Positions 739-42,267 of a stretch of 64,000 bases of DNA are shown here, piece after piece. The notes below the pieces were generated by a model. That model searched no databases, had not been told where the DNA came from, and worked only from the letters and a program-made list of their open reading frames with translations. The position numbers and the translations under genes were made by a program. Each line of letters begins with the position of its first letter. The stretch's first letter is position 1. The DNA comes from Mobula hypostoma (lineage: Eukaryota), in the NCBI RefSeq assembly GCF_963921235.1, contig NC_086097.1, positions 114,206,001-114,270,000 of the forward strand. The letters are read 5' to 3'.

Positions 739-835
739 CATACTTTTCCAATGTTTCTGAAAATCTCCATAAGACCGAAAAGGACAGTCTGGTGGAATCT
801 CATAGCCGATGCTGACAATTTGCCCCTTCTTCATA
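739..835 (-). CDS. C18orf63: C18orf63 coding exon 8, (S)[32 protein letters not shown]; gene continues beyond the window start
   Basis: ttttttctaaatgaag acceptor, GTGAGG donor, 97 nt, phase 2 to 0. Resembles SMKMGQII...CPFHSYGDFQRHW. Confidence 0.93.
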
Positions 836-2415
836 CTTCATTTAGAAAAAAGAAATTTGATGTCCAAAATAATCTCATTACTTTCTGAGACATTTCAGTA
901 AGTACTGACACCTGAGAGAAAAGGCAACTCTGCCTAAACATTCTACTGCACCACTTTGGGACTGGAGAAATAAAAAAGGCTGCGGTTAAGAGGTTCAGCC
1001 CTCAGGATCATGATTAGTGGGTTGCTGTGATAGGATCGTTCAAATGATCAAGGGTAGCTCCTAACTTACATGCATTCTGATCTGAGCTGCTTTACTAATA
1101 CATGACATGTGAATAATGATAGTCACTTCTAAGACAACTTGGTCTTAGATCAATCCCATCCTCCACACCACCCAACATTATCCTGAGAAAAGAAAAAAAA
1201 GGTTAAGTAATTGAATCTCCAGCAGGCATATTTCAATGCTGATCATTCTGAAGTCCACTGATCTTACAGAAATTTCTATCTTTAAATATTTGTTTTCCAG
1301 TAATATAAATGGGTTTAATTTTTTTCCAAGGATGAGGGAGAAGTACTTAAGAAATTGGAAAGAAATGGAGCTTCGGTTAAAGTAAGTCAGACTGATATTA
1401 CAACTCAGATTGTAGCTTAATCAGATAATAGTTCAGTAGGTGTGGTGACAACAAAGCAACTTTATTTCAGATTGTTGATGAAGAATGTATTCGACTGCCT
1501 TACTATCTGAAGTCAAGTTTGGTGAAATCAACTTTTATTTAAACAAAGCATCATCTATTGCATATCTATAGCCACAAGAAATAGCTCACAAGAAACATAG
1601 AAGCCAACTTTAAAAGCTTCTGCATGTATATAAAAATGTGCCTTTGATAGCCTACATTCAGTGCAGTAAAAATCTGGTAATATGTTACCTCACTTTTTGG
1701 GAATCCCAATGGTTTATCTTCTTGATCACTCCCGCTCACCCTCAGACTCACTGGGGCTCCATTTTCTGTTCCCACTCTGATGCATCTGGCTCCAGTTTCC
1801 ATACTCGCTCTAACCCAATTGCGGCTTTGCTAGCTACAGTCCGTCTGACATGTCCTAGTTTGGGTGTCATGCCTCAAAGCTTACATAGTGCTGTTTCCCA
1901 CTCTCCAATGAAACCTACTGTATTCTGTTTCCTGTGCTACCTTGAAATTTACAAGTTTCTCTGGAAAATGTGGTATTCCACTTTATGGAGAGCTTTCCAG
2001 ATTTCAACTGCCTTGTGGTTGGAAAAAAAAATTCTTTCTCCAATCTCTTCTAAATATCCTACCCCTTACTCTAAACCTGTGTACTCTGCTTATAGATACT
2101 TTTGCTTAGATGAAAGAGTATTCACTTGCTATCATATCTATGACTTGCACTTTTGATCATGAGAAAATTTTTCAAGCTTGAATTTATGTTGTGTTTTTAA
2201 AATGCCCCATGCATTTTATAGACCTTCTCTTTTATATTAAGTGTACATTTTTATCATTTTACTCATCCAAAAAGAAATACAGTGAATGGAAAGCTCAACA
2301 AAAGATCTAGAAAATGCAAAGGTACTTCATAATAAAAATACTCCAGTATGAATGAATATTCACAATAATGATTTACTGAGTTATATTGCCAACTTGTAAA
2401 ACTGATAAAAATTAC

Positions 2416-2525
2416 CTGGGAAGCACATAGCACCAATTACTTGCAATAAAATGTTTTGGAATTATAACAATCCTTTTGCTGTGGAAATTCTTCAGTACTC
2501 CTGTTGATATGTCAAAATCTTCAAC
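2416..2525 (-). CDS. C18orf63: C18orf63 coding exon 7, VEDFDISTGVLKNFHSKRIVIIPKHFIASNWCYVLP(S)
   Basis: ccatag acceptor, GTAATT donor, 110 nt, phase 0 to 2. Contains the SNWCYVLPS motif. Confidence 0.93.
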
Positions 2526-3334
2526 CTATGGATTAGGCAAGATTTGTTTATTGTAATCAATTAAATATGTAAAGTTAATCATTGTGGCCCTGTCCACTGG
2601 AAATCAGGACCGAGTGTAGTCTTCCAGTAAATTAGGCAGTATGGAATAATGGAACAGATGTAAAGATACATGACTGACAAGCATTATTTCTAGGAAGCAG
2701 AAGGATACAAAACCAAGTTATTACTGTTTCATAACAAACCAAGTATCAACAATGTATGAAAAGGAAACAAAAATTCTAAAATGATTACAGAAATTTATAT
2801 TGGAAAATACTGATATAAAAATATGTCAAGTTATAATAAGTTAAGATTTATAAATTATACACAATAGGGCAATACAAACATATCTTTCATTAATGACTTG
2901 GTTGTGAATTGTTGGCAAAGTCCGCTTTGTGGGTTCGGTCAGCTTTGATTTCATTAGTCAAGAGGGGAAATGCAGGTCACAGGCAGGTGATGTGATCTTA
3001 CTGTGTGCCTCCCGAGTTACCACTGAGCCGAGGAGGTGGAGGTCTAGGTAAGCCATCAGGGATGGTTGGAACATGTAGTACAATCATGTTCTTTGAATGG
3101 AGTTATTGTCTTTAATTGAAAAGGAAATTTCAGATATTGTGTATTGTTTTACTTTGTGCTTTAGTTCATTTTGCCTACTTGCAGGTATTTAAGTAAATTG
3201 ATTTATTAGATTTTTTATTAATAATAATTATTTAAATCTACATTGTTTTTGAATTATTCTGATTATCAGACATATTCATTTTTTTTCAGAAGCCTTGGAC
3301 TGTAACAAGTTGTCCTCAGTCTGAGACCAATATA

Positions 3335-3905
3335 CCTCTGTGGTCACTTTATTAGGTACACCTGTATACTTGCTTATTAATGCAAATATCTAATCAGCCA
3401 GCCAAACATGCGGCAGCAACTTAATGCATAAAAGTATACAGATATGGTCAAGAGGTTCAGGTGATGATCAGACCAAACACCAGAATGGGGAAGAAATGTG
3501 ACCTAAGCGACTTTGACTGTGGAATGATTGTTGGTTCCAGACGGGATTATTTGAGTATCTCAGAAATTGCTTATCTCCTGGGATTTTCACACACAACAAT
3601 TTCTAGAGTTCACAGAGAATGGTGAGAAAAACAAAAACATGCAGTGAAGAGCAGTTCTGTGGGGAAAAAATGCCTTGTTAATGAGAGAGGTCAGAGGAGA
3701 ATAACTTGACGGGTTCAAACTGACAGTAAAGTGACAGTAACTCAAATAACCTCGCATTACAATAGTGGTGGGTAGAAGAGCACCTCTGAATGCGTAACAT
3801 GTCAATCCTTGAAGAGGATGGGCTGCGCAGCAGAAATTCGCAATCATACACTCAATGACTACTTTATCAGGTACAGGAGGTACTTAATAAATTGGCCACT
3901 CCATG
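3335..3905 (+). mobile_element. Non-autonomous Tc1-like deletion derivative
   Basis: TA-flanked TIRs resembling CACTCAGTGGCCACTTTATTAGGTAC; degenerate transposase N-terminus (MGKKCDLSDFD.GMIVG). Confidence 0.8.
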
Positions 3906-3922
3906 TATAAAAAGAGCAAGAT

Positions 3923-40220: not shown

Positions 40221-40705
40221 TTAATTAAAAAATCTTACAGAGGCAAGTGGTTAAACACTGCTGGGGCATTTGAGGGGAGAACTTTGAATCTCGGTATACT
40301 CTGTGTTTTCTAGACATCTGTCACTTTGGCCTTTTAGGACCGGATCCAGGATGACCTAGTTCAACACCTTTCTTGTTAAAGAATAAAGGTGTATTTTTAA
40401 TGTGTGTACTTGTGCCCCCAAAACAATTTCAGAAGGGCATTCTCTAAACAACTTGTTTTCTCTTGAGATGGTCTTGGATATTCAACCTCCTATGCAAGTT
40501 GTTGAGAAATGCCCTTCTGAAATGGTTCAGGGGCACAAGTACACATATTAAAAATACACCCTTATTCTTTAACAAGAAAGATGTTGAACTTGGTCATCCT
40601 GGATCCGGTCCTAAAAGGGCAAAGTGACAGATGTCCAGAAAACACAGAGTATACCGAGACTCAAAGTCCTCCCCTCAAATGCCCCAGCAGTGATTTTTTA
40701 ATTAA
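40221..40705. repeat. Fold-back (palindromic) element, ~200 bp inverted arms with a 39 bp spacer
   Basis: 40256-40455 is the near reverse complement of 40495-40692; outer TTAATTAAAAAATC and GATTTTTTAATTAA. Confidence 0.92.
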
Positions 40706-41049
40706 GAACTTCCCAATGTCTCAGACGGAATTATTTAAAATCCCTTTGAATTGATTACAGTTCTTTAAATAAGTTTTACAAATAAAATTGTTTAAAACAT
40801 AGAAAAACACTAATAATACTTCAAGGCTTTTAAATTACAAGAAAAACTTCAGCATAAGGATCTCCAGCATCTTCAAGATTTTCTTGTGGTTGTGATTCAA
40901 ACAGTGTACGCCATTTTACCAATCTGGTGGCGACCTCATTCAAATTTGCACTTTCCTTGTCTGCAGTACATCATTGTTCCAACACCAGACACAATGGTAA
41001 GCCCAGCCATAGAAGGGAATCACTGCACATATACACAAGGTCCAAAACA

Positions 41050-42075
41050 TGCTAAGACACTAAGAGCACTTACTGAGCAGGTAATCTGCCATCAGTCAGC
41101 ATTAATTAAACCTCTGACTGAGCTGCAGAAGTCAGTGGCAGCAGCTAGAGATGAAGCTCATGGCTCCACATTCTCTAAGGCCTTGCACGAAAAGGGATTT
41201 ATGGAAGAATGGCAAAGAAAAGCATATCCTTGCCCGTAAAGACTTTGCAAAGCATCACTAAGATACTGTAAGGACGTGGAAGAAGGTCTTGCGGTTGGAT
41301 GAGACTAAAGTGGAACTTTGTGGCACCAGCACCAAGCAATACTTGCGGCATAAATCTGATACTACTTCTCAACCAGATTTCACCATCCCTACTGTAAAGT
41401 ATGGTGGAGGTAGCATCATGCTATGGGGAAGCTTTTCAGCAACAGGAACTGAAAGTCTTTTCTGGATTTATGTGAAGACGAATGCTATTAAATGCAGTGA
41501 GATCCAAGATAAAAACCTGCTAGCCTCTGCCAGAAGGATTAAACTGGGGAGAAAGTTCAGAAGTTGACCTTTCAGGGCAAAGACCCAAAGCACGCTGCCA
41601 GACCAACCATGGAGTGGTTGCAAATGAAGAAAATTGATGTCCTTGAGTGGACCACTCAGAGACCTGATCGAACATCTCCGGCAAGACCTCAAGATATCTG
41701 TTCACCATCATTCCCCAACTAACGTAGCACAGATTGAGCAATTTTGCAAGAGGAATGGACAAATCTTGCACCATCACATTGTGCAAAGCTAATACGATTT
41801 ATCCAAAAAGATTACTGGCTGTAATAGCTGCAGAGGTGGTTCAACTAACTACATAGTGAACAAAGGGGAATCAATACAGTACTTTTGAACAGCTGACATT
41901 TCAGCTTTTGAATTTTTAGTTGTTCAGACTTTAGCATTTTCCCTATTTTCTGGGCTCTGTAAAAAAAAAGAGCTCATGATTTACAAATAAAAATTGTCAG
42001 TTTAAATTGCTTAAAATCCCTGGTTGCAATACTCATTTACGTGAACAAAGGGCTGAATACTTTTACAAGGCACTG
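41050..42075 (+). mobile_element. Tc1 transposon remnant (transposase pseudogene and right TIR)
   Basis: DETKVEL, TVKYGGGSIMLWG and a degenerate WPSQSPDL motif; ends GAATACTTTTACAAGGCACTG-TA. Confidence 0.85.
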
Positions 42076-42136
42076 TACATAACATGTCATTAAACAAGTT
42101 TTGACTTTAAAACAATCATACTTCCATTTGAATTAC

Positions 42137-42267
42137 CTGCACGTTATAGTCTGCAAACTTTTTGCGTCAGCATCATCACAATTCAAAATCATAGTTATGC
42201 TACATAATTTTCGAAGATCAGGTAGACCAACGAAGAACAGGGACTGAAATCTATAATTCTCGTTCAT
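42137..42267 (-). CDS. C18orf63: C18orf63 (DUF4708) first coding exon, MNENYRFQSLFFVGLPDLRKLCSITMILNCDDADAKSLQTITC(R)
   Basis: Acceptor tttcacag gives an exon start at 42294; ATG at 42267; donor GTAATT; 131 coding nt. Peptide resembles the recalled human N-terminus (QSLFFITLPDLNKLC). Confidence 0.9.

Follow-up and report, generated by a model that had tools for sequence, protein, structure and literature searches.

C18orf63 (DUF4708) of the ray Mobula hypostoma as a predicted stand-alone Argonaute front lobe with a retained PAZ domain

Background

Long Argonautes of the AGO and PIWI clades share a front lobe of N, L1, PAZ and L2 segments that is followed by MID and PIWI/RNase H (DEDX tetrad) domains, and guide anchoring, seed ordering and cutting need MID and PIWI. 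In MED13/Med13 (MedPIWI) of the CDK8 kinase module, such a front lobe is accompanied by MID and an inactive PIWI, with disorder between PAZ and L2 and an acidic PAZ that is blocked by the protein's own helix. The prokaryotic split or short-Argonaute lobes AfAgo-N, SiAga1 and APAZ consist of N, L1 and L2 without PAZ and are paired with a neighbouring short Argonaute, and Dicer carries a platform-PAZ cassette. Here we examine C18orf63, the gene of a DUF4708 protein, in a 64,000-nt stretch of the Mobula hypostoma genome (contig NC_086097.1, positions 114,206,001 to 114,270,000), which we refer to as the window and whose positions are counted from its first letter. A first-pass annotation of this sequence had proposed that the gene, between positions 739 and 42267, encodes a stand-alone N-L1-PAZ protein resembling Argonaute and PIWI proteins. 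We find that the predicted structure agrees with an Argonaute front lobe that extends through L2, and we weigh what such a lobe might do by itself.

Results

An intact, spliced gene of a widespread family

Mapping database homologues onto the window located eight minus-strand exons, each preceded by AG and followed by GT, which join into 699 nt, or 233 codons without a stop, exactly as the annotation had described. Their product is 100% identical to residues 20-252 of XP_062911094.1 (RefSeq C18orf63-like isoform X1 of Mobula hypostoma, 728 aa), a protein that matches Pfam DUF4708 with E 3.3e-119. The protein motifs that the annotation had cited lie at their places on the minus strand, and the YGY.LP continuation expected after the PAZ-like motif is found as YGYNLP at the start of the next exon, 3.9 kb past the window start. 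Five of the seven junctions are joined with GT-AG ends by contigs of run X1 (presumed RNA), which also contains all sampled words of a downstream exon, and six joints are present in a single 1044-nt contig of run X4 (related organism, presumed RNA), one of them with 6 differing letters. If records of equal length and depth are the same contig, all eight exons would stand in order on one X4 contig. C18orf63 of Mobula hypostoma is a genuine, intact and spliced gene, and we discarded the possibility of a pseudogene or an artefact on account of the intact frame, the spliced contigs, 345 homologues at E ≤ 0.001 and 570 cluster representatives. The family had been described as a vertebrate one, a description that is too narrow, because Arthropoda and Nematoda are the phyla in which C18orf63 Atlas clusters are most common.

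Predicted fold and domain layout

We observe that AlphaFold2, run with a 47-row alignment, predicts a confidently structured region at residues ~27-331, followed by disorder (332-654) and by a small helical module (660-710), and that the same order of elements is predicted for a 330-aa duck orthologue (56% identical; predicted template modelling score, pTM, 0.76). The domain boundaries would then be N ~38-113, L1 114-183, PAZ 184-289 and L2 290-331. Both predicted models match Argonaute-fold chains over ~250-270 residues, with no unrelated whole-domain match, and on these models we are highly confident in the call of C18orf63/DUF4708 as a stand-alone Argonaute front lobe of N-L1-PAZ-L2 type. 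The N, L1 and PAZ parts of the annotated lobe find fold matches, and neither of the structural outcomes that would have counted against the annotation was seen; L2, reaching ~residue 331, has to be added. The 233 residues are truly coding, and the window encodes only about three-quarters of the folded lobe (N, L1 and the beginning of PAZ). The suggested resemblance to AGO and PIWI proteins holds for the Argonaute fold, with MED13 as the best-scoring solved structure, at ranks 1-2 in three VIA structure-search runs (PDB 8tqc; 7kpv chain D). Identity to long Argonautes is 4-15%. The fold matches listed do not include Dicer, although a Dicer match is not thereby excluded.

An ordered L2-like strand and helix (293-314) directly follow PAZ, and disorder begins at 332. 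The ~320-residue linker is predicted to be disordered, residues 332-654 having a predicted local distance difference test score (pLDDT) <50 and poor conservation. Within it, an I-P-x-F-K motif (XP_062911094.1 residues 455-465) is conserved as far as mammals and the more remote homologues, occurring in 113 of 127 vertebrate proteins and in 28 of the 58 distant ones. When the lobe was modelled in complex with linker peptide 445-480, the prediction scored 0.00. The C-terminal tail is predicted to adopt a SAP/HeH-like fold. A SAP/HeH-like motif is found there in 15/17 anamniote and 0/101 amniote proteins, and 15 of 64 diverse homologues give weak HeH/Ish1 matches, all under Pfam cut-offs.

Sequence searches and the missing back half

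Searches of PDB with phmmer and two hmmsearch runs returned only matches at E ≥ 0.19, to unrelated or low-complexity chains, and PADLOC and NCBIfam gave 0 families for 6/6 proteins. We further compared a 54-row vertebrate and a 101-row diverse profile with the front halves of ray MED13 (two paralogues), AGO, PIWI and Dicer by HMMER, hhalign and a collinear block score; with single ray paralogues as targets and shallow profiles, none scored above shuffles. The best block z was 1.4, for the Dicer PAZ, and 13/200 shuffles were equally high. Pfam Med13_N has 0 matches in the ray genome despite the MED13 genes there and is hence uninformative. As these searches were null, the likeness to MED13 is one of structure scores and three motif positions. 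The sole prokaryotic match (L035, one of 43 candidates) was rejected as chance, being a 29-residue motif within an unrelated 423-aa open reading frame (ORF), which we take to resemble an MprF-type transferase domain.

No MID, PIWI or RNase III family was found in 47 aligned vertebrate proteins and 64 cluster representatives, the latter chosen for length and diversity from 143 newly returned among the best 150 of 570 at E ≤ 0.001, in line with the annotated lack of MID and PIWI. No PIWI match lies near the C18orf63 gene, the nearest on the same contig being 48 Mb away. The ray genome holds at least 25 PIWI-domain matches at a minimum of six loci, and in 6/6 of these loci (lower bounds) a PAZ match lies upstream on the same strand, so that no PAZ-less partner gene is seen. 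Given both results, the gene is neither a truncated Argonaute annotation nor half of a visible split pair, and its product, lacking MID and PIWI, has no means of guide anchoring, seed ordering or cutting.

We also note an apparent processed AGO pseudogene fragment at L020:1400-1900 (G000:C67 ~14.025 Mb), in which an AGO-like PAZ continues unbroken into sequence that the AGO gene on contig C76 carries as an exon of its own, and then stops; no PIWI match lies near it.

Conservation and charge of the PAZ pocket

Among 153 proteins examined, 101 cover the domain, and 58 of these, which we call the distant set, are <45% identical to the ray protein. We find that, in the distant set, the PAZ core is better conserved than any other part of the lobe, with 21/77 columns at ≥80% compared with 5/76 in N, 9/70 in L1 and 3/42 in L2, and that it is net basic in all 55 distant homologues with enough coverage. 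Its median net charge is +2 in 17 anamniotes, +1 in sauropsids (64 of 67 scored) and 0 in mammals (33 of 34 scored), with +1 in the ray.

We aligned the PAZ by eye, anchored on motifs, with AGO, PIWI, Dicer and two MED13 paralogues built from the ray genome. In this alignment, the aromatic residues of the PAZ helix are H248 (H/Y/F in 57/58 distant homologues), W249 and Y253, and K222 is kept too. The ray MED13 paralogues have Glu at the first aromatic position and an acidic core (-5, -7); C18orf63 agrees with MED13 at three other positions, namely Gly for the hairpin Tyr, Trp, and Tyr-Pro. Overall, the 3' pocket looks kept but altered. Separately, G254 of the PAZ Y-G-Y motif is Ser in all five cetacean proteins of the set (P0081, P0086, P0092, P0094, P0117).

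Exon layout, promoter and isoforms

Domain names of the exons were inferred from DSSP and the fold matches, and all exons are on the minus strand. A CpG-rich stretch at 43501..44000 (no strand assigned; CpG observed/expected 1.12, GC 0.52) lies directly upstream of the first exon and is likely the promoter; between 41001 and 47000, CpG observed/expected in the other 11 bins of 500 bp is 0.20-0.78. The coding part of the upstream exon of RefSeq isoform X1 (43385..43414, residues 1-10) has pLDDT <50 and is unconserved. The conserved start is in the exon at 42137..42294, which codes from ATG 42267 (M20) to 42137 and contributes the N-terminal strand and the start of the N domain (residues 20-63); its joint to 38523 is present in runs X1, X2 and X4. 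The N domain continues through the exons at 38451..38523 (residues 63-87) and 31652..31708 (88-106). L1 is divided among the exon at 23488..23599 (107-144), with the L1 helix, the first hairpin and the near-invariant W134, a 42-nt exon at 22264..22305 (144-158) that is absent from RefSeq isoform X2, and the exon at 11032..11108 (158-183) with the long L1 beta-hairpin. PAZ is entered in the exon at 2416..2525 (184-220), and its hairpin and pocket helix, including K222, G224, H248 and W249, are encoded at 739..835 (220-252). Past the window start, at 3.9-33 kb, are the remaining matched exons, which encode the end of PAZ, L2, the linker and the SAP-like tail.

RefSeq isoform X7 skips two exons that complete PAZ and L2, isoform X2 skips the 42-nt L1 exon, and comparable exon-skipping isoforms are observed in Narcine; all of these would break the lobe. 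Additionally, seven metagenome contigs carry intron-containing orthologue exons with 39-56% identity, whose breaks (~residues 144, 157, 219, 252, 283) coincide with ray exon boundaries, which indicates that the intron positions are old.

Published expression

C18orf63 is reported to be upregulated in preleptotene and downregulated in leptotene-zygotene cells (PMC12081002). A testis component enriched for meiosis includes it among its uncharacterised genes (PMC9792524; it was not found in 8 supplementary files of that paper), it is enriched in oocytes of chicken and human alongside SPO11, REC114 and SPATA22 (PMC9570461), and in fetal ovary it has been named as a novel meiosis gene (PMC12055976). 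Infertile men show a difference in the methylation of its promoter (PMC6926170; PMC13103210), and a supposed LRGUK interaction is mentioned (PMC13103210). Taken together, published expression points to meiotic entry, with which the annotation's notion of a germline factor is consistent. We found no publication linking C18orf63 to Argonaute in a search that most subscription journals and structure-classification databases lay outside, no publication naming DUF4708, and no bioRxiv preprint with C18orf63 and PAZ or Med13. Automated structure classifications may already group C18orf63 with Argonautes.

Neighbouring sequence

A FAM69/DIPK1-family gene (Pfam PIP49_N, E 1.1e-8; L015:8461-8592, G000:C1 ~114.104 Mb, minus strand) lies ~69 kb beyond the last C18orf63 exon on the same strand; DIPK1C is, we assume, the neighbour of C18orf63 in human. 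Two long reverse-transcriptase/endonuclease ORFs are present in the window, one at 47339-50359 (plus strand), which is upstream of C18orf63, open over 1006 aa and preceded by a 341-aa ORF, and a broken, closely similar copy at 33683-36579 (minus strand) in intron 2. We take both to be CR1/L2-type long interspersed nuclear elements (LINEs). A 1183-aa open ORF at 56692-60243 (plus strand) presumably resembles an L1/Tx1-type LINE ORF2, and broken ORF pieces at 52997-54135 (minus strand) presumably resemble a retroviral-type reverse transcriptase/RNase H.

Discussion

We consider it fairly probable that C18orf63 binds nucleic acid of some kind, and the reading that we tentatively favour is a clamp that needs no guide and does not cut: as cells enter meiosis, its PAZ pocket would take hold of the free 3' ends of single-stranded DNA. 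What is left in the absence of MID and PIWI would be a mobile lobe bearing a 3'-end pocket, together with a long tether and, in the ancestral form, a small module of DNA-binding type. The ligand might be resected or invading 3' ends at meiotic breaks, and the tail could tether the lobe to duplex DNA or chromatin, offsetting weak binding by PAZ; in amniotes, a protein partner may have replaced the tail.

A number of observations count against such a clamp. A shared fold alone shows no function, rigid-body root-mean-square deviations are high (4-8 Å), and there is no significant sequence-profile homology to any Argonaute-fold family, the motif resemblance drawn at first pass having reached significance in no sequence-profile test against these families. 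The basic patch fades in vertebrates and is near neutral in mammals, and the putative DNA-tethering tail is missing from all 101 amniote proteins. Furthermore, the DmAgo1 3'-site mutant PAZ6 has two PAZ tyrosines changed, in R-K-Y and T-Y-L contexts (PMC3597821); by our alignment by eye, the former corresponds to G224, a glycine in 125 of 126 cases, and the latter to T281, with Y282 one place on. Deletion of N-PAZ left the guide affinity of fly Argonautes unchanged (PMC3597821), so a lone lobe should bind weakly, and since PAZ adds little affinity in the intact fly proteins, avidity from a tail or partner would be needed. MED13 has been argued not to bind nucleic acid via its Argonaute-like interface (PMC12477606), and its PAZ 3' site is filled by its own helix (PMC7810384). 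Finally, expression at meiotic entry is equally compatible with RNA regulators.

A rather unlikely alternative, which is the reading of the first-pass annotation, is that C18orf63 is an RNA 3'-end-binding germline factor whose PAZ holds the 3' ends of PIWI-interacting RNA precursors, small RNAs or mRNAs, protecting them, limiting their trimming or passing them to a PIWI/AGO protein or a nuclease. Without MID and PIWI, however, it could neither anchor the 5' end of a guide nor order a seed or slice; the reported peak falls in preleptotene with a drop in leptotene-zygotene, recombination genes are the list neighbours in the reported sets, and the literature search found no paper that treats C18orf63 and Argonaute together. 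We read a small-RNA role as somewhat less likely than a DNA-end role. Another conceivable origin is from a duplicated MED13 front half, with the PAZ groove taking up a peptide (the protein's own conserved linker motif or a partner) and a role in meiotic transcription or complex assembly without binding of nucleic-acid ends. We judge this protein scaffold unlikely, because the MED13 PAZ is acidic and has Glu where distant C18orf63 proteins are basic and aromatic, the profile, hhalign and block tests did not place MED13 above shuffles, no intron position is in common (by eye), disorder falls between PAZ and L2 in MED13 (PMC7810384) but after L2 in C18orf63, and the Z lead of yeast Med13 over MILI is just 1.1. 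The pairing of the prokaryotic lobes raises the idea that C18orf63 is half of a split Argonaute, with a trans partner that would be either a protein of MID and PIWI alone or a PIWI isoform that is short or has been cleaved. This is highly improbable: every PIWI locus seen in the ray genome has its own PAZ, short Argonautes are described as prokaryote-only (PMC11370952), and the known partners (AfAgo-N, Aga1, APAZ) are without PAZ.

For a conserved human gene that has no assigned function and whose expression at meiotic entry is reported for both sexes, the analysis provides a structural identity, and K222, H248, W249, Y253 and Y282 become specific residues for mutation. Were the DNA-end clamp correct, an Argonaute-derived part would be added to meiotic recombination; were RNA ends bound, C18orf63 would be a missing germline RNA factor; and either way the protein bears on the origin of MED13 and of eukaryotic Argonautes. 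A broader and more doubtful proposal is that DUF4708 forms a fourth, ancient eukaryotic Argonaute-fold branch beside AGO, PIWI and MED13, consisting of the front lobe alone, with a guide-free role as a DNA 3'-end clamp that is shared with one algal and one archaeal family and that animals use at meiotic double-strand breaks; human C18orf63 would then be an unrecognised recombination factor and an infertility candidate.

Compared with known systems, C18orf63 is not a member of the AGO, PIWI or MED13 families, because their defining domains were tested for and are missing. It has N-L1-PAZ-L2 in common with the long Argonautes (MILI, 9ij4/9ij5, and SIWI of the PIWI clade; the AGO clade; TtAgo, KmAgo, CpAgo, AaAgo and HrAgo1), but is without their MID and PIWI/RNase H domains and thus without a guide 5' pocket, seed or slicing. 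With MED13 it shares the structure of the N-lobe, from which it differs in having no C-lobe, a PAZ that is basic and aromatic in distant members, and a SAP/HeH-like tail. The Dicer platform-PAZ cassette shows similar PAZ helix spacing and is an Atlas feature neighbour (0.89-0.90), whereas C18orf63 has an Argonaute-type N domain and no RNase III match in the 47 and 64 homologues scanned. The nearest predicted models outside DUF4708 are two unnamed Atlas clusters, one of 680 aa (Eukaryota, commonest in Chlorophyta; template modelling score, TM, 0.79 over 305 residues) and one of 580 aa (Archaea 94%, commonest in Nitrososphaerota; TM 0.63 over 272 residues), both above a plant Argonaute (TM 0.57). 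Unlike the prokaryotic AfAgo-N, SiAga1 and APAZ, C18orf63 occurs in eukaryotes and without any visible partner gene of this kind, a design that differs from the prokaryotic one of completing a short Argonaute. Overall, C18orf63 is built like the front lobe of AGO, PIWI and MED13, and its retained PAZ sets it apart from the prokaryotic stand-alone lobes.

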